Part shown: positions 7,081 to 63,897 of the stretch, piece by piece | Layout: every line of letters begins with the position of its first letter | Position numbering within the stretch: position 1 is the stretch's first letter | NCBI GenBank assembly: GCA_902800355.1 | Contig: CADCEE010000009.1 | Location: 1 to 63,897 of the forward strand | Source of the DNA: an uncultured Erysipelotrichaceae bacterium | GTDB lineage: Bacteria; Bacillota_I; Bacilli_A; RFN20; CAG-826 | Reading direction: 5' to 3' | Length of the DNA: 63,897 nt | Notes under the pieces: generated by a model | Database searches by the model: none | What the model was told of the DNA's origin: nothing | What the model saw: only the letters and a program-made list of their open reading frames with translations | Position numbers and translations under genes: made by a program

Positions 7081-7481
7081 TATAAAGTCTCCTCCTTTTT
7101 CTCTTCGAGAACTTGAGCTTTTCTCAATCTAGAAATCTCATCGATCTCGTTTCGTAATTGCCTTCTTGCAATAAAAGCTCTGAAAAACCTGAATAGCCCG
7201 TACGATAACAAGGCTGCGGCTATAGCAAAGCACGCGATGCAAACGAAGAATTGCAATGAAGAAGTATCAATGCCTCGCGATTTATTCATTACTCTTCTAA
7301 TTGAGAGTATTAGAAATAAAATTCCACAAACTAGTAAGATGGCACCGATTGCCACTAAAGCTAAAGCATTTTGTTGCTTATCGTACTCTTTAGTGTCTTT
7401 ACGATGATCTTCATTACTAAGTTCGGATAACTCGTCGTAACTTAGTGCCTCATAATTAATGACTTCTTTTTCTTTTGCCAT
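7080..7481 (-). CDS. Small two-TM membrane protein of unknown function
   Basis: Two hydrophobic segments. Its stop overlaps the start of the 3535..7080 gene. SD AGGAG. Confidence 0.75.
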   Translation of the reverse strand: MAKEKEVINYEALSYDELSELSNEDHRKDTKEYDKQQNALALVAIGAILLVCGILFLILSIRRVMNKSRGIDTSSLQFFVCIACFAIAAALLSYGLFRFFRAFIARRQLRNEIDEISRLRKAQVLEEKKEETL

Positions 7482-7494
7482 AAGTTACTCCTAA

Positions 7495-9655: not shown

Positions 9656-9676
9656 CTTAGCAAGTCCTCCGTTAAA

Positions 9677-11374: not shown

Positions 11375-11391
11375 TTTTAAAGCCTCCTTTA

Positions 11392-12369: not shown

Positions 12370-12371
12370 AA

Positions 12372-13307: not shown

Positions 13308-13312
13308 ATTAT

Positions 13313-40381: not shown

Positions 40382-40409
40382 AAAGCGACTCGATTGAGCC
40401 GCTTTTTTT
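40382..40409. terminator. Bidirectional terminator between convergent ktrA and hipA
   Basis: AAAGCGACTC-GATT-GAGCCGCTTTTTTT. Confidence 0.7.
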
Positions 40410-41616
40410 ATTCTAATACTAGATGCTTTTTAAGAATCTCTATCTCATTATTTTTTAAAGAATATTTATGAGATAGTTTATCGAAATTATCCTTAATAAC
40501 AGCGACTGTTTTGTTAACTATCTCTTGAGCTTCAACTTCCGTTAGACGGAACTGTTTATATAGTTTAATAACATCTTTAAGCTTTAAGAAAGTGTGCGAT
40601 TCATCGATCTTAAGGACATGACTTTTATCGTGAACACTAATAGTTAAATCAAACGCAGGTGATAAATCCCAACCATTTTTATTATAAATAAATCCATGGT
40701 TTCTTAAGTGATCATCAGTGTTATTAATCGCAATATTAAAAACAATACGTTTATATAATTCCTTTAGATTAGCATTCACGTTTTGACAGCGTGAAACGAT
40801 TAAACTAGCGATGTCTAAATAAGAATATATGTCGTCGCCTTTAATCGCCCCTAATAGGCATAGCGCACTCGCATAATGTATACGCTTATCTAATTCTCTA
40901 TCAAATCTTTTACTTAAGAAGGTTGAACCATATTTAGATAACTTCATGAGTTTTGCTTCAGGGACCTTAATATCACATAGCTTAGCTAAATCATGGACCA
41001 CCATTTCCATCGCTCCAACATCAAAGTCATCGTTCTTATTAGGGAATTTAGCGATATAAACAGTTTTATCATTATCAAAAACATTACATTTAGGTCTAGC
41101 GCCACCTAAAGAAGAACCAGGAGAAAACAATAAATCTAATTCTTCATCAGACAGCTCATCATCAACCTTAATGGCAGCTTGTTCTAATTTATTAATATAC
41201 ATAATAGGAGGGATATTGGTGTTTCTAGTTGAAAGATAAACACCATTCTCATCCATAATTCTAATCGCACCAGTACGATAGATATCACTTATGCCAGTGA
41301 GATAATCTATAACATATAACTTATCAATATCTCTTTTATGTGCATCACTTAAGATAAGTTTTCTTCCCCATCTATCTGGAAGAGAATCTTCTAAGAAACT
41401 AAAAGTTTCTCTTTTGCTTGATGGGTATTGTCTTCCAAGAGTTAAAAGTAAATCAGGATCAAAAAATTTATTAATATTATCAGATGATAAAAATGAGGGA
41501 TTAAATTCAAAAGAATGTACTTCTTTGCCACTAACAAAACTGACAAATAAAGTACCAATAATATTTGCCTTATCTTCTAAACAAATAAAATATTTTCTTT
41601 CTGCATCAGCTTTCAT
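40408..41616 (-). CDS. hipA: HipA family Ser/Thr kinase toxin
   Basis: DSLPDRWGR, GSSLGGARPK, IAKFP, KRFDR, NTDDHLRNHGF, LSPAFD. Confidence 0.92.
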   Translation of the reverse strand: MKADAERKYFICLEDKANIIGTLFVSFVSGKEVHSFEFNPSFLSSDNINKFFDPDLLLTLGRQYPSSKRETFSFLEDSLPDRWGRKLILSDAHKRDIDKLYVIDYLTGISDIYRTGAIRIMDENGVYLSTRNTNIPPIMYINKLEQAAIKVDDELSDEELDLLFSPGSSLGGARPKCNVFDNDKTVYIAKFPNKNDDFDVGAMEMVVHDLAKLCDIKVPEAKLMKLSKYGSTFLSKRFDRELDKRIHYASALCLLGAIKGDDIYSYLDIASLIVSRCQNVNANLKELYKRIVFNIAINNTDDHLRNHGFIYNKNGWDLSPAFDLTISVHDKSHVLKIDESHTFLKLKDVIKLYKQFRLTEVEAQEIVNKTVAVIKDNFDKLSHKYSLKNNEIEILKKHLVLE

Positions 41617-48897: not shown

Positions 48898-51303
48898 TTA
48901 TGCGATCTTAGGAAGTTTCCAAATATCTTTAACATAAGATTCGATAGTGCGGTCGCTAGAGAAGAATCCACTACTAGCGATATTTATTAAACACATGGTA
49001 GCCCATTTATCCTTATCTTGATAGAGCTTACTAGCCTTTTCTTGGGCCTCGATATAACTTGGTAAATCTTTAAGGATGAAATATTGATCGTTATTATTCA
49101 TAATCTCATCAAAAATCATTCTGAATTTATCAGGTCTATAGCTAGTCCATTCGCCTTCAAATAAGGAATCCATAATCGCCTTGATTCTTGAATCAGAATT
49201 ATACATATCCCAAGGAGAATAACTACCATTACGATATAATTCTTCAACTTCTTCATTCTTTAAGCCGAAGATTACAGCGTTTTCTTCTCCTGCTAAATCA
49301 ACAATTTCAATATTGGCTCCATCTAATGTTCCTAAAGTAATAGCCCCGTTCATCATAAACTTCATATTTGAAGTTCCACTGGCTTCTTTTCCAGCAGTAG
49401 AAATTTGTTCAGAAATATCCGCTGCAGGAATAATCATTTCTGCTAAAGAAACACCATAATTTTCAATAAAGACTACTTTTAAATATGGAGAAACATCTGG
49501 GTCATTATTCACAACCTTAGCGACCGCTAAGATTAATTCAATAATCTTTTTCGCATACGTATAGCTCGGAGCGGCTTTAGCACCAAAGATATAAGTGTGA
49601 GGATAGATTCTAAAGTTAGGATCATTCTTCATTCTTTGATATAAGTAAATGATATGGAAGACATTCATTAATTGTCTCTTATAAGCGTGTAAACGCTTAA
49701 CTTGGACATCAAATATAGAATTAACATCCACATCAATGCCGTTATGCTCTTTGATATATTTAGCAAGTTTAACCTTATTTTCAAGCTTGATATCTTGGAA
49801 TTCTTTAATCACTTTCTTATCAGTCGCATATTTCTTAAATTCAGAAATCTTAGACATGTCGGTAATCCATTTATCGCCAATTTTAGAAGTGATTAAATCT
49901 GCAAGTCGAGGATTGGAATTTAATAACCACCTACGATGAGTAACTCCGTTAGTTTTGTTATTAAATTTCTCAGGCATATATTTATAAAATTCTTTAAATG
50001 TTGTGTTCTTTAAGATTTCTGTATGTAAAGCAGCCACTCCATTTACTGAGAAAGCGGTATAAATCGCTAAATTGGTCATATGGATTTGTCCATCTTTAAT
50101 GATATTCATCGCATAGCGGTCCCAATCAGGAATACCGGCAGCGTTCATTTCAATATTAAATCTACGGTTAATTTCTTCGATAATCATGAAGATACGTGGA
50201 ATTAATGTTTGCACATAATTAATTGGCCACTTTTCTAAAGCTTCCACCATAACTGTGTGGTTAGTATAAGCCATACATTTACTGACTTCTTCCCAAGCAT
50301 CAGCCCATTCCATATCATATTCATCTAACATGATTCTCATCATTTCTGGAATTGCTAAAATTGGATGGGTGTCATTTAATTGGAAGACATATTTTTTATG
50401 AATACCCTTTAGGGTGCCATGGTGTCTATAATAAGAATTTAAAGCACTTTGTAAACCAGCAGAGACTAAGAAATATTGTTGTCTAAGTCTTAAAATACGT
50501 CCTGCTTCTGTAGAATCATCAGGATAAAGACCATGACATAATTCTTCAATGGCGTTACAGTACTCTTTAAAGGCCATGTTCTTTGGTAAAGAATGATTAG
50601 ATGGTTCAGCATTCCAAAGTCTTAAAGTGTTAGTGACGTTATTTCTATATCCAATAACAGGCATATCATATGGGACCGCTCTTACACAGACTGCATCAGC
50701 AGTTCTAATGCCGTACGTTCCGTCTTTCTTTTGATAAGATTCTGGATGTCCATAGAATTTCACTTCTACCGCATATTTAGAACGTCTAACTTCCCAGACG
50801 TTACCGTTAACTAGCCATTGATCAGGTAACTCGACTTGTTTACCGTCTTTAATTCTTTGTTTAAAAAATCCATATTCATAACGGATACAGTTACCATTAC
50901 CAATATAACCTAAAGAAGCAATAGAATCTAAGAAGCAAGCAGCAAGTCGACCAAGACCACCATTACCAAGTCCTGCGTCACTTTCTTCATCTTCTAAGGT
51001 ATTGATATCAATACCTAATTCTTCTAAACCTTCTTTAACAATCTTATATAGGCCAAGGTTTTGAATGTTGTTATTAAGCATTCTGCCCATTAAGAATTCC
51101 ATAGAGAAATAAATAAGAACTTTCTTTCCCTTGGTGGTACTTTCTAAATGAGTGTTATTCCAGTCAACATTCGCGTAGTCTCTAATCATTTCACCTAAGA
51201 TTGTGTATTGTTCGTTAACACCACTATCTTTGACTTCCACACCATAACGTTGAAGTAAACGATCTTGAAATTCCTTCTTAAAATTTTGTTTGCTACTAAA
51301 CAT
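48898..51303 (-). CDS. glgP: Glycogen/maltodextrin phosphorylase (GT35)
   Basis: GLGNGGLGRLAAC, LRLRQQYF, QLNDTHP, KRLHAYKRQ, PLP motif EASGTSNMKFMMNG. Confidence 0.98.
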   Translation of the reverse strand: MFSSKQNFKKEFQDRLLQRYGVEVKDSGVNEQYTILGEMIRDYANVDWNNTHLESTTKGKKVLIYFSMEFLMGRMLNNNIQNLGLYKIVKEGLEELGIDINTLEDEESDAGLGNGGLGRLAACFLDSIASLGYIGNGNCIRYEYGFFKQRIKDGKQVELPDQWLVNGNVWEVRRSKYAVEVKFYGHPESYQKKDGTYGIRTADAVCVRAVPYDMPVIGYRNNVTNTLRLWNAEPSNHSLPKNMAFKEYCNAIEELCHGLYPDDSTEAGRILRLRQQYFLVSAGLQSALNSYYRHHGTLKGIHKKYVFQLNDTHPILAIPEMMRIMLDEYDMEWADAWEEVSKCMAYTNHTVMVEALEKWPINYVQTLIPRIFMIIEEINRRFNIEMNAAGIPDWDRYAMNIIKDGQIHMTNLAIYTAFSVNGVAALHTEILKNTTFKEFYKYMPEKFNNKTNGVTHRRWLLNSNPRLADLITSKIGDKWITDMSKISEFKKYATDKKVIKEFQDIKLENKVKLAKYIKEHNGIDVDVNSIFDVQVKRLHAYKRQLMNVFHIIYLYQRMKNDPNFRIYPHTYIFGAKAAPSYTYAKKIIELILAVAKVVNNDPDVSPYLKVVFIENYGVSLAEMIIPAADISEQISTAGKEASGTSNMKFMMNGAITLGTLDGANIEIVDLAGEENAVIFGLKNEEVEELYRNGSYSPWDMYNSDSRIKAIMDSLFEGEWTSYRPDKFRMIFDEIMNNNDQYFILKDLPSYIEAQEKASKLYQDKDKWATMCLINIASSGFFSSDRTIESYVKDIWKLPKIA

Positions 51304-51336
51304 AGTAAAACTCCTTTTTATTTATACAAATAAATA

Positions 51337-53089
51337 TTATTTTCTTTTTTCTTTAAGTTTAAAGATGCATGCTCCCATAGAAGCAAGCTTGATATTTAAA
51401 TAGCCGTAGAAAGTATTTATTGGGCCACCATTATATTGGTTCGCACCACCATAAATATCTTTATCGCTATTAAATATTTCTTCGTATATTCCTTCAACTT
51501 CCACAGGAATACCAAAATTATCATAGTAATTGGTAGTCATGTTGAAGATAAAGATTAAAATTTCATCATCCACTCTGCGAGTGAATGCAAATACACTATC
51601 GACATTATTATCAACAATAAGCCACTTAAATCTTTCTGGGTTATGTTCTTGATAATACATCGCCTTATGAGCGCGATAAATTAAGTTAAGGTCATGATAT
51701 AATCTAGAAATAGAATCATGCGCTGGGAACTGTTTTAAATGCCATGGAAGAGATTTATTTTCATTCCATTCATCAAAGCTAGCGAATTCATTACCCATGA
51801 AGTTAAGTTTCTTTCCTGGGTGAGCGAATTGATAAGTAATTAAATTTCGTAAGAACGCAAATTTTTGATAATAATCTCCCCACATTTTATTTAATAATGT
51901 GCCTTTTCCATGTACGACTTCGTCGTGAGAGAATGGAAGCATAAAGTTATCACTATAGAAATAGGCCATAGAGAATGTAAGTTTATTATGATCATATTTC
52001 TTATAAATTGGGTCTAAAGCGTAATACTTTAAAGTATCATTCATCCAGCCTAAATCCCATTTATAGTCAAAACCTAAGCCATCATATTCAGTAGGTCTAG
52101 TAACTCCTGGGAAATCACTACTATCTTCGGCAATCATCATCACTTGGTCATGATATAAATGCATCTTGCCGTTAAGACGTTTAATAAATTCCACTGCTCC
52201 ATCATTACGGCCATCATTTTTATTGCCGTTCCAGAAGATTAAATTACTAACCGCATCAATTCTAATGCCATCCGCATGATAATAATCAACAAAGAAGTTC
52301 ACCGCACTCATTAAGAATGATCTTACCGGATCTTTACCTAAATCGAATTGATAACTTCCCCACTGAGAAACACGATGTTCGTTATTATATTCAAATAAAT
52401 ATCCCCCGTCATAGTTAGCTAAACCCCAACTATCAGTCGCGAAATGTACTGGAGCAAAGTCCACAATAATACCAATTCCTTCTTGATGGAGTCTATCTAC
52501 TAGAGACATAAATTGATATGGATTACCGTATCTTGGGTCAATAGAGAAGAATCCAGTAGCTTGATAGCCCCAGCTACCAGTAAATGGATGAGCGACTACA
52601 GGCATCACTTCAATATGGGTATAACCCATACCTTTAATATATGGAATTAATTCATCAGCGATTTCTTGATACAGGTTTATCAAAATTTCTGTCTCTACCT
52701 TTTAAGAATTTCTTATCATGCCAGGCAAAGTTTTCTACATCGAATGTTCTACTACATGTATTTGGGGCAATTTCACAGAAGAAGGCATATGGGTCAATCT
52801 TATCAACATATTCTCCTTGAGCGTTTTTAAAGTGATATTTATATGATTGATAATTTGTAGCACCTGGCACAAATACTTCCCAGACTCCACAACTATCAAT
52901 CTTGTTCATTTTACATGAATAAATATCCCAGTTATTGAAATCCCCAATAACCGAAACATCATCCGCACATGGAGCGTATAGTCTAAAGACTACACCATCA
53001 ACTCCATCTTGTTTAACAAAGTGCGCACCAAAATATTTATAGGCATCAATACTTTGTCCCATTAAGTAGTTAGAAAAATCATATCCCAT
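51337..53089 (-). pseudogene. glgB: 1,4-alpha-glucan branching enzyme (GH13_9), split by an apparent out-of-frame deletion near 52668
   Basis: CBM48 part (FGAH...FRLYAP..VSVIGDFNNW) ends at PVS. Catalytic part (GYTHIEVMP, SWGYQ, GIRIDAV, IAEDS, SHDEVVHGK) begins at YQEIA. The linking IYExHxGSW motif is absent. Confidence 0.85.
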
Positions 53090-53181
53090 AAAAATCACCG
53101 AACTAATTATATAATATGCTTCTTATTTTTTATATAAAAATAATATCAAATATATATTGTTACCTTTTAAATACCTCTAAT

Positions 53182-53212
53182 TATTTTACTCAAATTTAAA
53201 TTGAGTAAAATA
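53182..53212. promoter_or_regulatory. Perfect 12-bp inverted repeat upstream of the rhuM-fic gene (candidate operator)
   Basis: TATTTTACTCAA-N7-TTGAGTAAAATA. Confidence 0.45.
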
Positions 53213-53256
53213 TCGCGCTATTATATTATAAGGATAAAGAAAGGAGGTAAAAAGTA

Positions 53257-54204
53257 ATGGAAAGATTTCAATTAGTCAAATTCGAAGACAATGATTTTGT
53301 TCTTGATGTTAGAGCAGATTATGAAAACGAAACAATGTGGTTATCTGATAATCAAATTGCCGAATTGTTTAGCCGAGATAGAAGCGTTATTTTAAAGCAC
53401 ATAAATAACGTTTATAAAGAAGGCGAATTAGACAAAAACTCAACCTGTGCAAAAAATGCACAAGTTCAAATCGAGGGTGATCGAGCTGTTAAAAGAGCAT
53501 CACACCTTTATAATCTTGACGTCATTATTTCTGTAGGATATCGCGTCAAATCTAAACGTGGAATTATCTTTAGAAGATGGGCTAACAAAGTACTTAAAGA
53601 TTATTTAATTCAAGGGTACGCAGTTAATCAAAAGCAATTAGATAATCTCAACAAAGTTATCGACATACAAAATCGTATGCTTGCATATTCGTTAGACATG
53701 GATAAAGAAACATTATCGAATGTCATAAATGAATACACAAAAGCATTAGATTTATTAGATAGCTATGACCATCAAACTTTAGAAAAACCAAAAGGTCAAT
53801 CTAGTGATTATGTGCTCACTTATCAAGAAGCTCGATATATCATTGACTTAATGAAATTTGGCGAAAGATCAAGTGTCTTCGGTGTTGAAAAAGAAAAAGG
53901 AAAACTTGAAGGTATATTAGGCCAAGTATATCAGAATGTTTTTGGAAAAGAATTATATCCAACCATTCAAGAAAAAGCCGCTCACTTACTATATTTTTTA
54001 GTAAAAGATCATCCTTTTGCAGATGGATGTAAAAGAATAGCGGCAACTCTATTTATTAATTTCCTTTATCGAAATAATGCTTTATATAGAAATAACAAAC
54101 AAGTTATCTCTAACGAAGCATTAGTGGCGATCACTATTCTCACTGCAGAAAGTAATCCAAACGAAATGGAAACCATAGTGAAGTTAATTATGAACTTGCT
54201 GTGA
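53257..54204 (+). CDS. RhuM/Fic/Doc family protein
   Basis: ETMWLS..QIAELF, YNLDVIISVGYRVKS..G..FRRWA (RhuM); Fic motif HPFADGCKRIA. Confidence 0.92.
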   Translation: MERFQLVKFEDNDFVLDVRADYENETMWLSDNQIAELFSRDRSVILKHINNVYKEGELDKNSTCAKNAQVQIEGDRAVKRASHLYNLDVIISVGYRVKSKRGIIFRRWANKVLKDYLIQGYAVNQKQLDNLNKVIDIQNRMLAYSLDMDKETLSNVINEYTKALDLLDSYDHQTLEKPKGQSSDYVLTYQEARYIIDLMKFGERSSVFGVEKEKGKLEGILGQVYQNVFGKELYPTIQEKAAHLLYFLVKDHPFADGCKRIAATLFINFLYRNNALYRNNKQVISNEALVAITILTAESNPNEMETIVKLIMNLL

Positions 54205-54207
54205 ATG

Positions 54208-54243
54208 TGAAAAAAGCGCTTTATAATGAAGGCGCTTTTTTCA
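54208..54243. terminator. Bidirectional terminator between rhuM-fic and malQ
   Basis: TGAAAAAAGCGCTTT...AAGGCGCTTTTTTCA. Confidence 0.8.
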
Positions 54244-54256
54244 TGCTCAATAAGCA

Positions 54257-55687
54257 TTATTTAAACCATTTATAATCTGGGTATTTAATTCTTTTTGTCC
54301 AGTTATGATCTTTAAGTTTCCATTCCCAGTTAGGGGATCCTACTGTTCCAGGATAATTCATTCTCGCTTTATTATCTAGCTTCAATAAATCTTGAAGTGG
54401 GAAGATAGTCATTAAGGACGGAATAGTGAATATATATTTCACTATCTCATCATATAATTTCTTATCATTGCTGACCCCTAGTCTTTTCTTAATAAAAGCT
54501 TTTTGGTCATCATTAAGATTTAAGAACCAACCATATAAAGTTTCATTATCATGTGTTCCTGGATAGACAATTTGTCTATTAGTGCTTTCATTATTTGAAT
54601 CGAATATTGTGAATTCGCTAATAAACATACCAGGAAGATTAAAGCGGTCTCTAAGCTCTAAAACTTCAGGTCTAAGGTCACCTAAATCTTCAGCGATTAA
54701 TTCGGTATTAGGGTATTTCTTAAATAACTCATTAAAATATTCATCTTGAGGTCCAATTTTCCATTCACCGATTCTAGCGTCAGTGGCGTCTCCTGGAATG
54801 ACGTAATATGTATCAAAGGCTCTAAAATGATCAATTCTTAAAATGTCACATAAATTCATTAAATAACCAACGCGGTCCACTAATAACTTGTAGTTATCTT
54901 CTTTCATTTTTTTGAAATTATATATTGGAGTGCCCCAAAGTTGACCAACATCACTAAACGCGTCAGGTCCTACTCCACCTACTTCAAATAATTTGTTATC
55001 TTGACCTATAGAAAATTGGTCTCGATTAAGCCAGCATTCTACCCCGTCAAAACCAACGTAGAACGGCATATCACAAATTAGTTTAATTCCTTTTCTTTTC
55101 GCGTAACTTAATACGTGCTTCCACTGCTTTAAAGCCACGTATTGCATATATATCACAAAATTAATTTCATCTAACAATTTTACAGGTGGACAGGTGTGGG
55201 TAAGATAATAATCTCGATCTTCAGGCCTCCACTGGTTCCACTGCTTATTATCGTTATGCCATTTGAATACTTCAAATGTTGCATAAGGCATGACCCATTT
55301 ATTTCTCACTTTAAATTTATGAAGAGTTTCTGGTTGTTTCTTCATAAATTTCTTATAGGCTTTATATAAATATTTCTTTTTATATTCCCCAACATTAAAG
55401 AAATCAACACTACTAGATTTTTCTAAATAAGCAGGGACTCTTTTTATTAGCCCTTGTTTGGCTAATATATCTAAAGATATATATCTAAACTCTAACGCAT
55501 TAGAGCAAGTAGACATATAAGGGGAATATCCTGGTCCTAATGGATTAAGAGGAAGCACTTGCCAATACTTATATTTATTTTTAGCAAGCCAATCAATAAA
55601 CTTATAACATTCCTCACCAAAATCACCAATGCCGTGTCTAGATGGAAGCGAAGACACCGCAAGTAAAACACCTAATTTCTTTTCCAT
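54257..55687 (-). CDS. malQ: 4-alpha-glucanotransferase (amylomaltase, GH77)
   Basis: GIGDFG, WQVLPLNP, PDAFSDVGQLWG, RIDHFRAF, IAEDLG, YPGTHDN, RMNYPG. Confidence 0.97.
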   Translation of the reverse strand: MEKKLGVLLAVSSLPSRHGIGDFGEECYKFIDWLAKNKYKYWQVLPLNPLGPGYSPYMSTCSNALEFRYISLDILAKQGLIKRVPAYLEKSSSVDFFNVGEYKKKYLYKAYKKFMKKQPETLHKFKVRNKWVMPYATFEVFKWHNDNKQWNQWRPEDRDYYLTHTCPPVKLLDEINFVIYMQYVALKQWKHVLSYAKRKGIKLICDMPFYVGFDGVECWLNRDQFSIGQDNKLFEVGGVGPDAFSDVGQLWGTPIYNFKKMKEDNYKLLVDRVGYLMNLCDILRIDHFRAFDTYYVIPGDATDARIGEWKIGPQDEYFNELFKKYPNTELIAEDLGDLRPEVLELRDRFNLPGMFISEFTIFDSNNESTNRQIVYPGTHDNETLYGWFLNLNDDQKAFIKKRLGVSNDKKLYDEIVKYIFTIPSLMTIFPLQDLLKLDNKARMNYPGTVGSPNWEWKLKDHNWTKRIKYPDYKWFK

Positions 55688-55849
55688 AATATATTTATAT
55701 ATCCTTATTAATTAATTTAATATTAAATCTAATTAAAAATAATATCAATATGATTGGGACAAAAATTATTAATTACGATGTTTATTAATTAATAAAACAA
55801 AAGGCAGTCCATATAGAACTGCCAAGTTATAGTAATCACTTGCTATATA

Positions 55850-56074
55850 TTAATTACGAGTGATGATGAAACGGTTGTTGAAGTTACAGTAATATTCAAT
55901 ACGATGTTTATTGTCATCAATTGGATATTCATCTCTGACTTGTAAATTATAGAGATAATGTGCCTCGTAGTAATCAAACATATAGTTTACTGCTTCGGAT
56001 CTAGAGGCGAACATCGACCTCTTAAGTTTAACAGGTCTTCCTTGAACAATCGCTTCAAGGGTATAGTATTTCAT
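55850..56074 (-). CDS. Small hypothetical protein (74 aa)
   Basis: Own promoter (TTGACT-16-TACAAT), SD GAGAGG, and a downstream terminator near 55799-55823. Confidence 0.7.
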   Translation of the reverse strand: MKYYTLEAIVQGRPVKLKRSMFASRSEAVNYMFDYYEAHYLYNLQVRDEYPIDDNKHRIEYYCNFNNRFIITRN

Positions 56075-56283
56075 TTGTATTACCTCTCTTTCAGTAGTTT
56101 ATCGTCGTGCTTAGGACGAGAGGTATTACCAATGAAGAATACATATTGTAGTCTCTTTTTTAAAATAGTCAATAGGGTTACAAAAGAATTTTATCTATAT
56201 ATAGATAACATAAAATTATATTAAAAATATTTTTCAAATTAAAAGCGATCCAAATGGACCGCTTATTTAATTATATTAAATAA

Positions 56284-57510
56284 TTAGTTTTCTTTCTTCT
56301 TTCTAAAGAGGAAATATCCACCAACAGCTGCTAAACATGTAGCAGAAATTGAAATAATCACTATTATACTAACACTCGATTCAGTAATTGAACCAATTAT
56401 TCCAATTCTTCCAAATGAAGAAATAGATGGATATTTTTTTATTAATTGCGCTCTGATTTCTTGTAAAGAAACTTCGGCTGTATGAGAAGAACTTGTCTCA
56501 GGCGTATCATAAGTAACTAGACCAGATCCAGCCACAGAGGAAGCAATTCCACTGCCACCTGTAGATTCTAGACTGTCATATGTTGATACAAATGTACTAG
56601 CTTCAGATTGGCTTAAATGACAAATAGAGCTAGTAAAGTTCTTTCCGGCATAGGAATAAGAACCAAGTTTGCTTTTTAGAGAAATTAAGAGTTCTATAAC
56701 TGGTTTATAAGTATCACTTACTCCGTAAAAATAAATGCCACCATCGCTTAATATTAAATCTCCGGTTTCTTGTCCTCCGTTATTGTTGCTAAATTTAACA
56801 TAGGCTGCACTGCCGGATAATGTATATTGCATAATGTTTAATCCAGAAAACTCTGTCTCGCCTACAAAAGCCTTTAGCCTTAAGGATGAATCGCTCATAG
56901 TTTTTCCTGGATAAGACCCTGCAGAAGCAGTGCCTCCCCAGAAATATGCGGTAACAGATCTAGATGTATGCCATGAGTATCCATCTACAAAATAAAATGT
57001 AGAGTTTTGGGCGTTATCTCTAATTTCACCAATTCTATAAACTTCAGCTTTAAATAATTTTTTACTGCCAGAATCAGCAACCCAACCGATGCCTTTTATT
57101 TGAAATTCGTATCCTGGCTGAAATTTACTATCATCAATCCAAATATATCCACCATCATATTGATATTCCCATTGTGTTCCATTTTCCTTAAAAAAACATC
57201 CCATTTTGTCATATGTGCTACCAGAAGAAATGTCCTTAACGTAATTTCCAAGGCTTTGATTATATTTAGCATTGCTAGAACTTAGAACAACATTATTGCC
57301 TGATCCATTGCCACCAATTCTAATATCGGTAATTGTTCCCCATCCGCTAGTATTAAAATCTAAATAAACACGAATGGTCGAACTATAATCAGCAGCTTCA
57401 ACTGTGGCAGGTTTAGCAGCTTCTTTTGTTAATGCCACACCAGCAAATGCACCAACGCCTAAAAGCGCAGCAAATGCGGTAGTTAAAAATAATTTTCTTT
57501 TAACTCTCAT
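56284..57510 (-). CDS. Array protein A: membrane-anchored surface protein with starch-binding (CBM26-like) module
   Basis: Signal peptide ending VEA; FYFVDGYSW...AYFWGG...YPGKTM...VKFSNN; Cys stalk; TM + RKKKEN. Confidence 0.65.
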   Translation of the reverse strand: MRVKRKLFLTTAFAALLGVGAFAGVALTKEAAKPATVEAADYSSTIRVYLDFNTSGWGTITDIRIGGNGSGNNVVLSSSNAKYNQSLGNYVKDISSGSTYDKMGCFFKENGTQWEYQYDGGYIWIDDSKFQPGYEFQIKGIGWVADSGSKKLFKAEVYRIGEIRDNAQNSTFYFVDGYSWHTSRSVTAYFWGGTASAGSYPGKTMSDSSLRLKAFVGETEFSGLNIMQYTLSGSAAYVKFSNNNGGQETGDLILSDGGIYFYGVSDTYKPVIELLISLKSKLGSYSYAGKNFTSSICHLSQSEASTFVSTYDSLESTGGSGIASSVAGSGLVTYDTPETSSSHTAEVSLQEIRAQLIKKYPSISSFGRIGIIGSITESSVSIIVIISISATCLAAVGGYFLFRKKKEN

Positions 57511-57614
57511 AAATAAAACCTCCCGAAAGTTCTATAAATGTAGATTGAGATTACTTTACATTAACTTACAAATTATCACAACACTTTTTATTAAATAAAA
57601 ATAGAATTAAATTA

Positions 57615-57635
57615 CGGAATTTAAAAAAGGCGACA
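57615..57635 (-). terminator. Intrinsic terminator after array gene B
   Basis: AAGGCGAC-AAA-GTCGCCTT with a U-tract on the minus strand. Confidence 0.8.
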
Positions 57636-57701
57636 AAGTCGCCTTCTGTATCAAATTCTATCTAACATTATAACTTTCGGGAGTCGATAGAAATTGTTAC
57701 C

Positions 57702-59252
57702 TTAATCGTTTTTCTTCTTTTTAAATAAGAAGTATCCACCAATAGCCGCAATAGAAACTGAACTAATTGCGATGATGGCAATCATGCTTCCAGTAGAACC
57801 ATTAACGATAGAATTAATTAAAATTGCACCACTGCCTGATTTTGCAGGTTTTCTATTCATAAAGTCATGATATTGTCCCGCTGCTGTGCCATATCCATAT
57901 TTGCTCAAAATACGATCATATCTTGCTGCACATTGTTCAATTAATGTACCGCCTTGATTTGCGGATGCCGTTGCAAGAATACCTTTTGCCCCTTCGGTTA
58001 AATCATTGTACTTGTATTCCATTGAAGCGGTACCGCTGACTTGGTTCCAAACATTTATATTGAATGTAGTAGAATCTGAAGTACAAGTAATAGCTGCTAA
58101 GAATGCGGTGGCATATGTTGTAGCTTCGCTAGTAGAATCTTGTTGAATCCACAATTTATTAGTACCCTCAGTGGTCTTTAAATAAATTTCATATGTACCA
58201 GCAACTGCAACTTTAATTCTATATCCAGTTGAATCTGGATCAGTTCCTTGAATAATTGATCCATTAGTAACAACTTTGCTTGTTTGATCAACTTGACTCC
58301 ATCCGTACCAATCGCTTCCTTGGTAAACAATTTTGAATTCGGTGTTTGCCGCGAAAGCTTTTGTAATACGATATTGAGAGTTTTCTCCTGGCTCCATTAA
58401 GTAATTAGGATCTGAAGCATTCCAGTTATTCATTGTTCCAGCAACATACGCTTCGGTTTTCACTGTCTCTTTTGCATAAAGAGTTTTATTTGCCGTAAGA
58501 ATGTCATTAAATTGTGTTGATAAAGCGTTTGTTGTATACCAACCGCCAAATGTATATCCAAAAATGTCATAGTTTTCACTCATTTTGTAATACTTTGACA
58601 TAGTTATGGACTTACTGGCTAATTCAGTGGTTGTACCAGTTTTAATCGCCTTAGCAGTCACAGTAACATCTCCCCATGTGTTGGTTTGGGCAGTATTATC
58701 AAGATTGGCGTTCATCTTCCAACCACTATCGTTATAAATATAACTATTAACTTTTTTTCCAATTCCCCATCCGCTATGTAATCCAACTGCAGAGCCGTTA
58801 ACATCAAACCAGTTCCACCAACTATTGCCAACTGCTTTGTAAGAGAATGCAGTTACCCACTCTGGAAAAACCATTGTGAAGTTTTTAGACCCAGTTGGAC
58901 AAAGAAGATATTTTTCTTGCTCGGTATTTGACATATATGACCAGCCTTTAGTAGAAGGCATTGAGGAACCAGATGTTGTTGTATATGTACTACGTGCACC
59001 CAAGTAGCTTGTTAAAAATGACCTCCACGCTGCATGATCATAACCGCTTGCGAAAGAAATGGATTCGATAGCTAATACAGGAGTTGTTGTTACTTGGTCT
59101 TCAATGTAAACCCTAGTAACAGTTTTGGAAACTACAGCTTCAGCTTTAGTAGCGTTACCTTTTTGAGAAGCAACAGAAACACCGATACCAGCGGCAAGAG
59201 CAGTTGATAATAATAATCCACTTACAAGTTTTTTAAGTTTCATAATTTTCAC
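57702..59252 (-). CDS. Array protein B: surface protein with InlB-B/Listeria-Bacteroides repeat and SusE/F-like module
   Basis: Signal peptide ending AEA; GYTFGGWY...LYAK; YVAGTMNNW...FKIV...WYG...AGTYEIYL; Cys stalk with ARYD; TM + KKKKND. Start is GTG 59252 or ATG 59243. Confidence 0.65.
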   Translation of the reverse strand: MKIMKLKKLVSGLLLSTALAAGIGVSVASQKGNATKAEAVVSKTVTRVYIEDQVTTTPVLAIESISFASGYDHAAWRSFLTSYLGARSTYTTTSGSSMPSTKGWSYMSNTEQEKYLLCPTGSKNFTMVFPEWVTAFSYKAVGNSWWNWFDVNGSAVGLHSGWGIGKKVNSYIYNDSGWKMNANLDNTAQTNTWGDVTVTAKAIKTGTTTELASKSITMSKYYKMSENYDIFGYTFGGWYTTNALSTQFNDILTANKTLYAKETVKTEAYVAGTMNNWNASDPNYLMEPGENSQYRITKAFAANTEFKIVYQGSDWYGWSQVDQTSKVVTNGSIIQGTDPDSTGYRIKVAVAGTYEIYLKTTEGTNKLWIQQDSTSEATTYATAFLAAITCTSDSTTFNINVWNQVSGTASMEYKYNDLTEGAKGILATASANQGGTLIEQCAARYDRILSKYGYGTAAGQYHDFMNRKPAKSGSGAILINSIVNGSTGSMIAIIAISSVSIAAIGGYFLFKKKKND

Positions 59253-59376
59253 TTGTCACCAATAGCGGCCTAGCGACTACTCCTTTCTGAGAGTAAAAGT
59301 AACTTTGCTATCTCAAATTTTGAGGGCTTATCACTTTAGGAATAAATATTCCAAAAGTTTGATAAAAGTTGTATTT

Positions 59377-59405
59377 AATATACCCCCCCCCCGTTGCTTT
59401 GTCAA
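59377..59405 (-). promoter_or_regulatory. SigA promoter with a G10 homopolymer in the spacer
   Basis: TTGACA (59400-59405), AAGCAAC+G10 = 17 nt, TATATT (59377-59382). Confidence 0.8.
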
Positions 59406-59772
59406 CATGTAAATATCATTATACTCTGTATAATGCTATTGTTGAAAAAACGCTATTTTTAACCTCTTCACTTTTGTTTTTAAGTTTTTATTCAAAGGGA
59501 CAATTTTGCGATTTCTCTATTTGTTTTTTTCGACATCAAATCTCAGTATTTTTTTACTCATCAAAAAAGGAAATTTGATACTTCAATTTTCTATTTAATC
59601 TGCTTTTATAAACATTGATGGTTTTAAGGCTTTTAATATTGATAAATATTTGTAACGTGATTTTATTCATCTTTTATATGAAATCCTCTTAAAACGCCTA
59701 TTTGCGCGCATAAACACGCACGGATATAAAAAGCGGACCAATCGGCCCGCTTAGACTAGATTAACTAGTTAA

Positions 59773-61230
59773 TTAGTTATGTCTTTTCTTTTTGACTAAG
59801 ACTAAGGTAGCAAACGCTAATGCACTGATAGCAGCAACAGCAATAAATACAGTTGTTGATCCTTCGTCTTCTTCGTTTAATCCGTAAACAATATTAGCAT
59901 TAGCAGTTTTACCTTCTGTCCATGGATTTTCGCCTAACGCTCTTGCCCATGCAGTATATCTATCATAAGCATTTTTAAATTGTTCAGTCTTTGAAGTAGC
60001 ATATCCTTGGAAAACAGTTTTTTCTGTAGCTGATAAACCAAGATAAACAGCCTTCATTGCTGGAAATCTATTTTCATCACCACAGTGACCAGCATATTCG
60101 CCCATGCCCATTAATTTTGCGGCTAAATGTTCAGCATTTAATGAACCTTCTAATTCAATAGAAATCTTTTTACCTTCAGCATATGTGTTATCGGTAAAAT
60201 AGAAATTATATGTTCCACGTGCATAACAAGTAATATCGCTATCACCATCACCGCTGAAATAATGATATGCTCCACAAGATTCTAAAATCCATGAATAACC
60301 AAAATAACAAGTAATATCGCTATCACCATCACCGCTGAAATAATGATATGCTCCACAAGATTCTAAAATCCATGAATAACCAAAATAAGAATCTAAAGAA
60401 GACCCATCATAGTATGCAATTTTAAACACATCACCAAACTCTAATTGAACTTGTCCTTCGTATTGACTACCTGTATTAGGTAATTGAACGGCGCCTTCCA
60501 TTCCCCACTCGCAGGAACCGAAATCTCCAACGATATATCTACCAGTAGGATATGTTTTATTCCACTGAGCATATAAAGTGATTGTTTCATCAGCTTTAGA
60601 ACTACTGATGTGTTGTTTGTCCGAATAAGAATCGCCTGATCCATCGGCTTTAGTGTTCCATCCAGTAAAAGCATATCCGGTTCTAGTGAAAGCATTTTGA
60701 GTAAGTTCGTTACCAGCAGAAGCGTCACAGTAGCATGTCATATTTGCCATTGTGCCTTCTCCACCATTTTTATCAAATGCAACTGTAAAGAATGTTAATG
60801 TCCAAGATCCCATTGGATAATTTTCGGTATAATCGTCTTTTGTATTGTAATAACCTGTAACATTATTTCCTGGCCATGCATCTTTCCATTCACTAATAAC
60901 ACCCCAGTCTTGGTTTTCCGCTCTAAAATATTGGAATTTAAAGCCATTAACATCAGAAGGGAAAGTATATTTATAAACGCTTTGGCCCATGTTGTTTGTG
61001 TAAGCATAAGTCATTGGTTTATATTGATCTCCGGTTGCTTCTGACCAATAAAAGGCGTTTGGTGCCTTGTCGTAAGATTGAGATGGTCTAGTGTAATAAA
61101 TTGTTTCACCTGATGATAAAGCATCAGCAACGATAGGTTTAGATGATTCCTTTGCTAATGAAGCGCCGCCTAAAGCACCGACGCCTATAAGCGCTGCAAA
61201 TGCGGTAGATAAAATGAATCCTTTTCTCAT
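59773..61230 (-). CDS. Array protein C: surface protein with CBM26-like, InlB-B repeat and SusE/F-like modules
   Basis: IYYTRP...PNAFYW...MT...YKYTFP; VAFDKNGGEG...RTGYAFTGWNTKADGSG...LYAQW; YIVGDF...FKI...GTYNFYF; TM + KKKRHN. Confidence 0.7.
   Translation of the reverse strand: MRKGFILSTAFAALIGVGALGGASLAKESSKPIVADALSSGETIYYTRPSQSYDKAPNAFYWSEATGDQYKPMTYAYTNNMGQSVYKYTFPSDVNGFKFQYFRAENQDWGVISEWKDAWPGNNVTGYYNTKDDYTENYPMGSWTLTFFTVAFDKNGGEGTMANMTCYCDASAGNELTQNAFTRTGYAFTGWNTKADGSGDSYSDKQHISSSKADETITLYAQWNKTYPTGRYIVGDFGSCEWGMEGAVQLPNTGSQYEGQVQLEFGDVFKIAYYDGSSLDSYFGYSWILESCGAYHYFSGDGDSDITCYFGYSWILESCGAYHYFSGDGDSDITCYARGTYNFYFTDNTYAEGKKISIELEGSLNAEHLAAKLMGMGEYAGHCGDENRFPAMKAVYLGLSATEKTVFQGYATSKTEQFKNAYDRYTAWARALGENPWTEGKTANANIVYGLNEEDEGSTTVFIAVAAISALAFATLVLVKKKRHN
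60223..60388. repeat. Perfect 81-bp in-frame tandem duplication
   Basis: 60223-60303 equals 60304-60384, with ATAA microhomology at the ends; duplicates YFGYSWILESCGAYHYFSGDGDSDITC. Confidence 0.95.
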
Positions 61231-61383
61231 ATAAAATCTCCTTTTGGTTTTATAAATAAAAAACGATTGTGTAGATTTATTTTACTACTATATTAATAAA
61301 CCACAAAGAAAAAGTGTTCTGACAAAAAAGGCCAGGAAATAATCCTGACCTTCATAAACAATAATTTAATAGAACCAGTCTAA

Positions 61384-62526
61384 TTAATTATGTCTTTTCT
61401 TCTTAAATACTAATAAGAGAGTAAATGCCAAAGCAGAAACTGCAGAAACGGAAATAACAACAATTAATATGCTAGAATTTCCAATCTCTCCGATACTATG
61501 GTTAATATAAATCGACGCTCTAGGTGTATCACTACTATTGACGATAAAGTGTGTTAAGCCTGGATGACTAAGAAGAGCTTGATCATATCTTGCTAATGCC
61601 CTACCTAAATTGTCACCTTCTTTATCAGCTTTTCCACCATAAACATAATCTTTTGCGTCGTTGCTTAATTTAGCATATTCGCTAGCGCATGAAGCCCAAC
61701 CAGTAGGTTCATTAACGCCGGTTGCATCACAACCAACGTTATTTAAGAAATATGATGCCCATCCATCTGCATCAACGATATCTTGTCTAGTAATCCATAA
61801 CTTTTTAGTTTCGGTATCGAAATAAAAATCGTATGTACCAGCAATTAAACATTTGATATTAGGGTTTTCAGGACTGACTTCCTCCATGCTTCCACCATCA
61901 ATTGCGCCGGCTAATGCTTCAGGTCTTCCATAGAATCCAGACCATACTCCATCACCAGCAAGAATTTTGAATTCTTCATCCTTTACCAAAGTAACAGATC
62001 CGGAAACCTCAGGGTTGCCTGCGACGTTTAAGCCAATATTAGATAGAGTTGCTTTTTTCTCAAAAGGTGGAACTTGATTGCTTCTAACTTCGGCTGAAAC
62101 AGTCCATTGTGAAGTGCCAGGATAATCCCATCCGTTTTCAATATATGTGGCTTCTTTAAATTCTAAATCACCAGTTTGATTCCATTTTTTTCCATCATCC
62201 CAACTACCTTGTGTTTCGCTTGGATTCATTCTAACCCAAATTAATTTAGTTGGAGTAAAACTCACATTGTAATCAAATTTGTAAAGTAATGTGGTGCTTG
62301 TTGTTGTTTGAAGAGATGTCCAATAGTCGTTTGTATCATCTGTCATGTACGCACAAATTTTCGCACCAGCCTCAAACCAATTATGGTTTTCTTGAAATTT
62401 AACTACTAAACTTCCTGATGTAGATTCCGCCTTAACTTCAGCAACTTTTCTTTGATGTGCACCAACGGCTACACCAACACCTAAAGCCATTGCTAAAGTT
62501 GTAGCAAAAATTAATCCTTTCTTCAT
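61384..62526 (-). CDS. Array protein D: Trp-rich surface protein with SusE/F-like module
   Basis: Signal peptide ending VKA; NWFEAGA...WVRMNP...WNQTGDL; EFKI...AGTYDFYF; Cys stalk with ARYD; TM + KKKRHN. Confidence 0.65.
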   Translation of the reverse strand: MKKGLIFATTLAMALGVGVAVGAHQRKVAEVKAESTSGSLVVKFQENHNWFEAGAKICAYMTDDTNDYWTSLQTTTSTTLLYKFDYNVSFTPTKLIWVRMNPSETQGSWDDGKKWNQTGDLEFKEATYIENGWDYPGTSQWTVSAEVRSNQVPPFEKKATLSNIGLNVAGNPEVSGSVTLVKDEEFKILAGDGVWSGFYGRPEALAGAIDGGSMEEVSPENPNIKCLIAGTYDFYFDTETKKLWITRQDIVDADGWASYFLNNVGCDATGVNEPTGWASCASEYAKLSNDAKDYVYGGKADKEGDNLGRALARYDQALLSHPGLTHFIVNSSDTPRASIYINHSIGEIGNSSILIVVISVSAVSALAFTLLLVFKKKRHN

Positions 62527-62680
62527 ATAAAAATCTCCTTTTTGTTTTTATAAATCAAAAACGACTTGTTAGATATATTTTACTACTTTATTTATAATGC
62601 ACAAACTATTTCTATCTATAGAAAAAAGGCCAGGAATAAATCCTAACCTTAGTTAATTGATTTTTAATTGATTAAATCAC

Positions 62681-63897
62681 TTATTTTTGTTTCTTCTTTT
62701 TGAAGATTAATAAGAGTGAGAACATCAATGCGGATGAAGCAGCAACTGCGATAATGATAATAGCAACACTACTATTGTTGACGATTGCTAAATCACCATA
62801 ATATAAGCTTGATCCATTAACTGCAATTTCAGCAATTTTACCAAGTTGTTCAACAACACTCTTATAGGACCAAAGAACATTTTCTGTTTTTGAAGTGTCT
62901 TTCCAAGTATAAACGGTTGTGCAGTCAATATATGTTTTTGCAACTTCGCTATCGAAACCGTTATAAATATTAACGATAACTTCTGCATCTATTTTAGAAA
63001 CATTACAGACAGACCAGTCTGCAGCTGCATTTCTTTTTGCTTCAGCAATTTTTAAGAATTCAATGGCGTCACCAGCTTCAACATTAGCAGGTCCCTCCCA
63101 CCAATAAGCGGCTTCAGAGACAAGTGCTCTTTCCTCAGATTTAACTTCACCACCATTGTTAAACATAAACATAGTGTCACCAGCTGGATAACCAATGGTC
63201 ACCGGAATTTCATAAATGAGTTTAGCGGTTTCTCCGCCTTGGAAATGGATGACACCATTGCCAGTTAATTCTTCAACATCTGTAACAGCAGTAATAGCGG
63301 TTCCTGGCCATGCACCAAATTGTTCACTTCCACCCCAAGAATAAATGTAATCAATGGTTGGTTCTGCGCTGTTTGATACATAGTAGATACAAGTCTCAGT
63401 AGATCCGTGTTTGAGAATGCTTACATGGCCATCATAAACAACAAAATCATATGTACCAGTCTCAGATAAACGTAACCATTGTCTACCACCGCCTGTGACA
63501 TATTTACTAGAATATTCATCTACCATGTCGTAGAATGCACCATCTAACTCAACAGAGCCATCAGAAATCCATTCCACCCAATGGTTGTATTCATATTCAA
63601 AATTTCTGACAGCAAAGACTCCATTTCCAGGTTCTTTAACAAAACTATATTGTTCTACTTCATCTTCTTCATGGATTTTAAAAGACTCACATGGATCACC
63701 CCAGATTTTATCGTCGCAGAATTTCCAGTGATCACCTTCCCAAGCATTACCAAATTGCCATTGAATAGCAACATAACCTGTGTCTTTATCAATCGAAGAA
63801 AATGAAGAATCGCCAAATTTAGTAATATCAACTGACCATTTGTCACCTTCATCTTTTTGATGAATAACCCAGTTTGCACCGGTAATAACTTGATCTT
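62681..63897 (-). CDS. Array protein E (5' end outside window): surface protein with CBM26-like module
   Basis: The frame of the 62681..63577 ORF stays open to the window edge (DQVITGANWVIH...). IYYV...YIYSWGG...AWPGT...FMFNNG; Cys stalk; TM + KKKKQK. Confidence 0.7.
   Translation of the reverse strand, partial: DQVITGANWVIHQKDEGDKWSVDITKFGDSSFSSIDKDTGYVAIQWQFGNAWEGDHWKFCDDKIWGDPCESFKIHEEDEVEQYSFVKEPGNGVFAVRNFEYEYNHWVEWISDGSVELDGAFYDMVDEYSSKYVTGGGRQWLRLSETGTYDFVVYDGHVSILKHGSTETCIYYVSNSAEPTIDYIYSWGGSEQFGAWPGTAITAVTDVEELTGNGVIHFQGGETAKLIYEIPVTIGYPAGDTMFMFNNGGEVKSEERALVSEAAYWWEGPANVEAGDAIEFLKIAEAKRNAAADWSVCNVSKIDAEVIVNIYNGFDSEVAKTYIDCTTVYTWKDTSKTENVLWSYKSVVEQLGKIAEIAVNGSSLYYGDLAIVNNSSVAIIIIAVAASSALMFSLLLIFKKKKQK

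Follow-up and report, generated by a model that had tools for sequence, protein, structure and literature searches.

A tandem array of membrane-anchored proteins with starch-binding-type modules beside malQ in an uncultured, probably wall-less member of the Bacilli

The capture of starch at the cell surface is understood in Bacteroides (the Sus system), in Ruminococcus bromii (the amylosome) and in Eubacterium rectale, but not in the small-genome wall-less Bacilli, which are frequent in metagenomes of rumen and gut and lack a cultured model. Here we describe a candidate starch-capture locus in an uncultured Erysipelotrichaceae bacterium that probably belongs to such wall-less Bacilli. The DNA analysed, hereafter the window, is a stretch of 63,897 nucleotides (NCBI GenBank assembly GCA_902800355.1, contig CADCEE010000009.1), which is a complete contig, labelled C9. 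At its right end lie five tandem minus-strand genes, A to E (56284-63897), whose products combine putative starch-binding modules with a stalk and a C-terminal transmembrane (TM) helix, and the 4-alpha-glucanotransferase gene malQ is directly downstream of them.

SusE and SusF of Bacteroides thetaiotaomicron (PDB 4fem, 4fch, 4fe9) are non-catalytic surface proteins with tandem starch-binding beta-sandwich modules, encoded inside a starch-use locus, and the array appears to share these traits. Both by structure (Z 9.2-9.3) and by profile they are the closest relatives of the middle module of protein D. This module type, X25, is treated in an excerpt of PMC9112005 as one and the same in SusE/F, a Bacillus pullulanase and Sca5/Sas20. 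However, SusE and SusF are lipoproteins of the Gram-negative outer membrane that go with the SusC/SusD transporter, whereas the array proteins lack a lipobox and carry a TM helix after a stalk. Pfam scans of the neighbouring genes, here and in relatives, found no SusC/D family; parts of an ATP-binding cassette (ABC) importer are found there instead. The array also differs from SusE/F in mixing X25 with CBM26-like (carbohydrate-binding module family 26), Flg_new and unassigned modules. The second comparison is with R. bromii Sas6 (CBM26 plus CBM74) and Sas20/Sca5 (X25), which are non-catalytic starch-binding proteins of the Bacillota with the same two module types as the array. They attach through dockerin-cohesin pairs and sortase-anchored scaffoldins, whereas each array protein has its own membrane anchor; none of the five matches a dockerin or cohesin family at E ≤ 10, and no CBM74 was seen in them. 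Amy13K of E. rectale (a CBM26 pair, 6b15) likewise presents CBM26-type modules in tandem on the surface of a Gram-positive gut bacterium, coupled to the import of maltooligosaccharides by an ABC system, but its CBMs lie within the enzyme itself, which is anchored to the wall by LPXTG, whereas the array modules sit on separate, non-catalytic, membrane-anchored proteins. The array thus resembles SusE/F and the Sas proteins and uses their module types, and is a member of neither system. A literature search of partial texts, with supplements outside its reach, returned no description of such proteins in wall-less Bacilli.

The five genes, with the modules assigned to their products by residue and, in brackets, by window coordinates, are as follows.

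56284-57510, minus strand: gene A, 408 amino acids (aa); signal peptide, beta module aa 40-164, CBM26 module aa 165-266 (56713-57018), stalk type 1 (mixed alpha/beta) aa 267-366, TM helix, RKKKEN tail.
57702-59252, minus strand: gene B, 516 aa; signal peptide, orphan module aa 40-196, Flg_new aa 197-264 (58461-58664), X25-like module aa 265-372 (58137-58460), stalk type 2 aa 373-470, TM helix, KKKKND tail.
59773-61230, minus strand: gene C, 485 aa; signal peptide, CBM26-like module aa 37-108 (60907-61122), Flg_new/InlB B-repeat aa 148-222 (60565-60789), X25-like module aa 226-352 (60175-60555), stalk type 2, TM helix, KKKRHN tail.
61384-62526, minus strand: gene D, 380 aa; signal peptide, ambiguous CBM-like beta module aa 35-142 (62101-62424), SusE/F-type X25 module aa 143-249 (61780-62100), four-helix stalk type 2 aa 250-345 (61492-61779), TM helix, KKKRHN tail.
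62681 to the contig end (63897), minus strand: gene E, first gene of the array, cut by the contig end, 404 aa within the window; in the numbering of its full-length homologue P0276, signal peptide, orphan module aa 36-172, X25-like module aa 173-266 (63410-63691), CBM26-like module aa 267-372 (63092-63409), stalk type 1, TM helix, KKKKQK tail.

Each of the five products has exactly two hydrophobic segments, a signal-like one at the N-terminus and a C-terminal one that is followed by three to five Lys or Arg residues. Gene E is truncated because the right end of the window is the end of the contig; the database protein P0276 is identical to it over all 404 residues, is 508 aa long and has a signal peptide at its start. 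No Cys occurs within the first 40 residues of any of the five proteins, so that there is no lipobox and none is a lipoprotein, and LPXTG is absent from all five tails. The models Pfam Gram_pos_anchor and TIGR01167 match weakly, below their cut-offs, and cover the hydrophobic-plus-basic part alone, a hint that the TM anchor may descend from an anchor of the LPXTG type. Trp makes up 1.9-4.0% of the ectodomains of A to E, against 0.75% over all open reading frames (ORFs) of the genome, and at E ≤ 10 the five proteins match no catalytic Pfam family, GH13 included. An earlier note on this DNA, made from its letters, had claimed at least five consecutive genes with a stalk, a TM helix and a poly-Lys tail but no LPXTG, signal peptides on the four complete proteins, Trp-rich middle regions and no GH13 catalytic domain. 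The ORFs, hydrophobic segments, tails, composition and Pfam scans agree with it on each of these points, and P0276 adds a signal peptide for the fifth protein.

The kind of cell in which these anchors would work can be judged from the whole assembly (label G000; G and L labels below denote genomes and loci of relatives), which comprises 32 contigs and 1.14 Mb at ~34% G+C and is 97.9% complete. It contains no match to sortase (PF04203) and none to the penicillin-binding protein transpeptidase families, which fits a wall-less, Mollicutes-like member of the Bacilli; its single Mur-ligase-like gene has a 406-aa product that is predicted to be FolC-like. The host therefore probably lacks a cell wall, in agreement with the guess of the earlier note at a Mollicutes-related lineage, and in such a cell the C-terminal helix would be the obvious substitute for an LPXTG anchor. 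Wall-less Bacilli of this kind, RF39 and RFN20, are discussed in an excerpt of PMC7301438. Those relatives that have public records are rumen metagenome-assembled genomes classed as Bacilli, Erysipelotrichaceae or Bacillales. An alternative genetic code was considered for the window and rejected, as long ORFs stay open throughout under table 11.

For the assignment of modules, family alignments of A, B, D and E were built from database homologues and compared module by module with hhalign. AlphaFold models made from the family alignments of A (predicted local distance difference test, pLDDT, 84.4) and D (pLDDT 88.8) were compared by VIA-align with 48,161 representative PDB chains. In the D model, residues 143-249 align with SusF (4fe9_A) at Z 9.3 (root-mean-square deviation, rmsd, 2.6 Å over 95 residues) and with SusE at Z 9.2. 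These are the sole chains of the 48,161 at Z ≥ 8 and stand 2.4 Z units above the next row; the next chains are X25-2 of R. bromii Sca5 (Z 6.9) and the X25 module in the pullulanase of Bacillus acidopullulyticus (Z 6.7). The profile of the whole D family (572 cluster representatives at E ≤ 1e-3) finds SusE in the PDB at E 0.0041, and with an alignment of the module only (23 copies from the genus) the top three PDB matches are SusF 4fe9_A (E 3.3e-5) and SusE (0.0044 and 0.0057). A hidden Markov model of the D X25 module matches B (E 2e-12) and C, and hhalign pairs it with the X25 module of B at 99.1, with the module of C at 95.1 and with the middle module of E at 88.2; the X25 assignment in E is accordingly a weaker one than those in B and C. 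D, B and C themselves do not match PF16411 or PF22058 at E ≤ 10. PF16411 (SusF_SusE) is matched by 2 of the 63 D-family members (best 2.1e-7), PF22058 is matched by 1 of the 24 B-family members, and the database lists a precomputed PF16411 match for B's own cluster. The B-family profile finds in the PDB just the CBM of AMPK beta at E 0.97, and a B homologue in the ESM Atlas gave leads below 0.9 only, to X25, Flg_new, SusF/SusE and CBM26 clusters.

A separate observation concerns the X25-like module of C, which contains a perfect 81-bp tandem duplication (27 aa, in frame) at 60223-60384 on the minus strand. The C orthologue in L004 has a single copy of the 27-aa unit. The duplication, which would probably disturb the beta sandwich, is either a recent event or an assembly artefact.

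CBM26-type modules were assigned to A, E and C. Protein A itself has no match to PF16738 (CBM26) even at E ≤ 10; the Pfam CBM26 model is matched by 10 of the 56 A-family members at E ≤ 0.01 (best 2.6e-16). The A-family profile finds R. bromii Amy16 (9qf9_A) in the PDB at E 1.1e-8, with two CBM26 stretches falling on profile positions 163-262. By structure, residues 168-274 of the A model are closest to the CBM26 of Sas6 (Z 8.4, rmsd 2.3 Å over 82 residues), followed by Bacillus halodurans CBM26 (Z 7.5) and CBM25 (Z 7.5) and the Amy13K CBM26 pair (Z 7.2), so that CBM26 and CBM25 chains occupy the top four rows among the 48,161. Since the B. halodurans CBM25 is level with its CBM26, CBM25 is possible for this module as well. 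The alignment with the Amy13K pair extends over both beta modules of A, and with Foldseek Amy13K 6b15_A is the sole match of the A model at E ≤ 1e-3 (E 1.2e-4). An excerpt of a preprint (10.1101/2022.11.20.514607) gives Y53, Y55 and W63 as the stacking residues of the Sas6 CBM26. Our sequence alignment sets Y189, W191 and Y200 of A at these positions, as a putative stacking platform. Of the 56 A-family members, 52 retain W191 and 55 have an aromatic residue at position 200, though mostly Tyr in place of Trp.

The module of E can be reached from that of A. Local iteration of a profile that began with the CBM26 module of A reaches E (2e-25) and the module at the N-terminus of C (iE 3.6e-6) but picks up neither B nor D; it also recovers its control, a CBM26 with a Pfam match in the 957-aa amylase that this genome encodes on contig C4. 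In hhalign the CBM26 module of A pairs with the module of E at 96.4 and with the N-terminal module of D at 66.2, and the whole E family aligns with the A family at probability 99.7 (E 9.5e-27) from the CBM26-type module to the anchor. Matches of the E-family profile to amicyanin in the PDB (E ~0.02) lie on a 'GTYD' strand and were taken as chance. Single-sequence phmmer searches of the PDB with each of the five proteins gave nothing useful.

The Flg_new (InlB B-repeat) model of Pfam matches C at 40.9 bits and B at 26.8 bits, against a cut-off of 27, and is matched by 13 of the 24 B-family members. Apart from the weak anchor matches, it is all that scans of the five proteins with Pfam and NCBIfam brought up. 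The earlier note had likened the middle regions to CBM26, to SusE/F-type domains and to InlB B-repeats, and the profiles and models uphold all three likenesses, the last clearly for C and marginally for B. At their N-termini, A and D have modules that are beta sandwiches with ambiguous matches at Z 5-7 (CBM41, CBM20, Sas20 domain 1, fimbrial and Ig-like domains), among them a weak one of A to Sas20 domain 1 (Z 6.1). Iterated profiles of the N-terminal modules of A, B and E gathered nothing new, those begun from X25 and from the N-terminal module of D spread across entire proteins and were set aside, and neither stalk type has detected sequence relatives outside its own families. Taken by their architecture the proteins fall into two classes: A and E have a CBM26-type module and then stalk type 1, while B, C and D have an X25-type module and then the helical stalk type 2. 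From these comparisons at least one module of every array protein appears to belong to, or at least to resemble, a starch-specific binding family.

Gene order in relatives places the array in a starch-use setting. In the genus malQ was found in 21 of 23 genomes; its upstream flank could be read in 16 of them, the contig stopping at malQ in the other five. In 14 of these 16 genomes the stretch directly upstream of malQ encodes one to five anchored proteins, which answers in the affirmative the call of the earlier note for a check of synteny. Among 29 anchored proteins of relatives, every match to a carbohydrate-binding Pfam model is to a starch family: in 24 of them CBM26 is matched by 5 (one above the cut-off), SusF_SusE by 1 and CBM53 by 1, and in the other 5 CBM26 is matched by 2, both above the cut-off. 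Beyond the array lies one or the other of two sets of genes. The first comprises Big_2 proteins, a pullulanase-like CBM48/GH13 protein, a small ORF and a 1,090-aa GH13 amylase; the second comprises a MalK-type ATPase, two permeases, a solute-binding protein (SBP) and a pullulanase. For example, on a 295-kb metagenome contig an E orthologue (56%) directly follows the amylase, the pullulanase and two Big_2 genes. The Big_2 proteins beside the pullulanase, 1,050-1,380 aa long, are encoded at these places:

L012:955-4158
L022:1155-5294
L023:11304-14705
L019:7959-11129

In them the same X25-like module recurs in tandem, in two to four copies, and our scan finds no C-terminal anchor on these proteins; they may be secreted multivalent starch binders.

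In the source genome part of this material was recovered from another contig, C17.

C17:1-9000, minus strand: C-terminal end of a GH13 amylase (233 aa), two small ORFs, MalK-like fusion of 852 aa, two permeases, SBP of 602 aa.

The amylase C-terminus is 66% identical to that of G003. With the amylase end, MalK, permeases and SBP at its start, C17 very probably holds the continuation of the locus on the far side of an assembly gap. Genes for the pullulanase and the Big_2 proteins, which would be expected between C9 and C17, were not found in the assembly. The amylase and maltodextrin ABC genes that the earlier note proposed to look for past the window edge are thus present in relatives, where amylase, pullulanase and a MalK-type importer follow the array, and partly on C17 here.

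We consider it probable that the array encodes a membrane-tethered, multivalent layer for the capture of starch or maltodextrin, which would work with the amylase, the pullulanase and the ABC importer and feed MalQ and the alpha-glucan phosphorylase GlgP. This is in essence the starch-capture reading of the earlier note, and it is supported: the note would have given it up if the modules failed to match CBM or SusE/F folds or if relatives lacked the linkage to malQ and glgP, and neither outcome was seen. The products would be type I membrane proteins, in which a cleavable signal peptide would export the ectodomain and the C-terminal helix with its Lys-rich cytoplasmic tail would retain the protein in the membrane. 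The stalk of ~100 residues would then raise two or three beta-sandwich modules above the surface, where many low-affinity sites for alpha-1,4-glucan would tether the cell to starch or long maltodextrins. In this division of labour the GH13 amylase, the pullulanase and the X25-bearing Big_2 proteins would cut the polymer, the MalK-type ABC importer would take up the oligosaccharides, and MalQ and GlgP would process them inside the cell.

A number of results weigh against a role in starch capture. None of the five proteins alone matches a carbohydrate-binding model of Pfam, even at E ≤ 10. The Z values of 7-9 are only moderately above the background described for the alignment tool. Where other CBM26 modules have an essential Trp, A has a Tyr (family Y40, F8, W7; n=56) and the E family Phe or Trp; none of the 51 members of the E family matches a Pfam CBM, and the E-family profile finds no CBM in the PDB. 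The N-terminal module of D fits CBMs no better than generic Ig-like domains (Z 5-6.7), and for those of A, B and E no sequence relatives were detected beyond the families to which they belong. Among the 24 anchored proteins of relatives, 13 lack any Pfam match. The locus is not constant either: in G005 and G009 an anchored gene is missing upstream of malQ (in G009 ClpB- and GGDEF-family genes are found there, in G005 directly the SBP, pullulanase and amylase), and glgB, for the branching enzyme, is broken in the genome studied here. Members of the families also occur elsewhere. A orthologues in L014 and L015, from other species, have no recognisable starch gene within 10 kb, an E orthologue in L035 is not beside recognisable starch genes, and the same is true of three further D-family paralogues of G003 at other loci. 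The stalk and anchor, finally, are a general surface-display cassette of the lineage. Of the 1049 ORFs in the genome that reach 100 aa, 18 end in the same C-terminal anchor, which is thus not peculiar to the array. Other large surface proteins of this genome likewise close with stalk type 2 and the anchor, and the D-family profile matches 25 of 40 genomes of the taxonomic family and 48 of 151 of the order, mostly through stalk and anchor. This part of the proteins is therefore uninformative about starch.

These points bear on two other explanations. The proteins could be fast-changing general adhesins or antigens on a standard stalk and anchor, directed at a host, protozoal or microbial surface or at a non-starch glycan, with their place next to malQ, glgB and glgP being a recombination-prone site. 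The many unrelated large surface proteins with the same anchor and stalk would be expected in that case, as would the moderate Z scores of the beta sandwiches, the family members at other loci, an array size that runs from one to at least five with content that varies even where malQ is 94-98% identical, and the insertions in the region (RhuM/Fic here and in G015, other ORFs in G001, G010 and G011). However, the best matches are to starch-binding modules specifically, with SusE/F 2.4 Z above the next row in one model and CBM26/25 in the top four rows in the other, and the CBM matches of Pfam in the arrays of relatives are to starch families throughout. Moreover, the array lies between extracellular starch enzymes and intracellular maltodextrin enzymes, on one strand, in 14 of the 16 genomes, and we consider a function in general adhesion improbable.

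An alternative that retains the binding of alpha-glucan is that the main role is that of a membrane scaffold or of hand-over, and not adhesion to granules. Soluble maltodextrins could be kept near the importer, or the anchor-less amylase, pullulanase and Big_2 proteins could be docked through Flg_new or orphan modules, which would amount to a minimal amylosome without cohesin and dockerin. In relatives the genes of these three proteins adjoin the array and none was seen to encode a C-terminal anchor, the Big_2 proteins repeat the array's own X25-like module, and B and C offer Flg_new repeats and three of the proteins an N-terminal module of no assigned family that might serve for docking. An excerpt of PMC4173775, in which the binding sites of SusE, SusF and SusG raise the growth rate on starch and are not needed for sensing, would also suit such a role. 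Single CBM26 and X25 modules, by contrast, are known as glucan binders and not as docking modules, and no cohesin or dockerin family was matched by the five proteins. A scaffold as the main role therefore seems unlikely to us, and a capture layer for starch or maltodextrin remains the explanation that we prefer.

The anchors of the genome include a second type, with a 'GC(G/R)GN' motif just before the hydrophobic helix and basic tail. It was seen in four ORFs:

C9:19359-20870
C7:59625-60389
C8:21729-26060
C12:99987-102788

The one within the window encodes a membrane-anchored Endonuclease I with a Big_3 domain. The motif might be a sorting or lipidation signal.

The array genes were called paralogous in the earlier note. 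This holds module by module and not over the whole length, as the BLASTP links between them come for the most part from the signal peptide, the stalk, the anchor and a single shared beta module. Stalks are alike within each class (hhalign 99.6 for B against D, 97.1 for A against E). Each gene is followed by its own terminator, as had also been claimed; three were found cleanly by a scan and one weakly, and the fifth, after B, was read by eye.

56243-56264, minus strand: terminator after A, hairpin and T-run, found by scan.
57627-57645, minus strand: terminator after B, hairpin, read by eye alone.
59731-59752, minus strand: terminator after C, hairpin and T-run, found by scan.
61328-61352, minus strand: terminator after D, weak in the scan, 10 pairs read by eye.
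62626-62650, minus strand: terminator after E, hairpin and T-run, found by scan.

A search of Rfam at E ≤ 0.1 gave two sub-threshold matches, one of them on the terminator after D, and both were taken as chance. The 84 nucleotides (nt) upstream of C and of D are 77% alike, the terminators of D and E are 74% alike, and the signal- and anchor-coding ends of the array genes are alike at the DNA level too. With their own terminators and with alike upstream, terminator, signal and anchor DNA, the genes look like duplicated, separately transcribed cassettes, each a transcription unit of its own.

The repertoire differs between close relatives. In G003, for example, malQ, glgB and glgP are 94-96% identical to those of the window, whereas the D orthologue is just 65% and an A-like protein 28% identical, and B, C and E are absent at the malQ site. 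In G001 malQ is 97% identical, yet there is a single 805-aa anchored protein. The set thus turns over as cassettes. A more speculative possibility, which we put forward tentatively, is that the array represents a wall-less counterpart of the amylosome, in which a lineage-wide stalk and TM anchor would carry swappable glucan-binding heads. Each cassette, with its own promoter and terminator, could be duplicated, swapped or lost quickly through the conserved ends, giving strain-specific repertoires, and the N-terminal modules of A, B and E, perhaps with both stalk types, could then be undescribed families for alpha-glucan binding or enzyme docking.

Downstream of the array the window contains the following genes.

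54257-55687, minus strand: malQ, 4-alpha-glucanotransferase (GH77), Pfam PF02446 E 4e-129, directly downstream of the array.
53257-54204, plus strand: RhuM-family/Fic-domain gene, between malQ and glgB.
51337-53098, minus strand: glgB, branching enzyme, split into a CBM48 ORF (52655-53098) and an overlapping GH13 ORF (51337-52683).
48898-51303, minus strand: glgP, alpha-glucan phosphorylase, 801 aa, Pfam PF00343 1018 bits.

Pfam bears out the earlier naming of the neighbours as MalQ, GlgB and GlgP; the picture of an intact row does not stand, as glgB is in two ORFs and the plus-strand RhuM/Fic gene intervenes. Set against the gene of G008, to which it is 98% identical, glgB lacks 62 nt, and this deletion shifts the frame and splits the gene. 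In relatives whose flank covers the entire gene glgB is intact, at 602-667 aa; the split copy could be a true pseudogene or an assembly error. The RhuM/Fic gene is in the same place in G015 (88% identical), and other relatives have different ORFs or none there, so that the spacer between malQ and glgB looks like an insertion spot.

The 596-bp spacer between A and malQ (55688-56283) is 89-97% identical to those of G008, G003 and G001. Its last 200 nt are also 95% identical to a small contig of G013, whose malQ is just 76% identical, which hints at either cassette exchange or a stray contig from another strain. Farther away, the window contains a second sugar-uptake cluster (3535-14965, minus strand), with a 1181-aa Big_2 protein, two ORFs without a Pfam match, an SBP, two permeases and an ABC ATPase of 550 aa that contains an inserted segment. 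A gene for a HipA-like kinase (40408-41616, minus strand; Pfam HipA_C E 8e-45) stands among housekeeping genes.

If the array is indeed a capture layer for starch, the two binding modules known from the systems of Bacteroides and Ruminococcus would here be mounted in a third way, on a stalk that is set straight into the cytoplasmic membrane. Such proteins would be kept, in numbers that vary, beside the amylase, the pullulanase, the importer and the maltodextrin enzymes. SusE/F-type modules would thereby be found in a new setting, and several of the unassigned modules could be new CBM families. For the wall-less Bacilli themselves, this would offer a testable view of their competition for starch in ruminants fed on grain.

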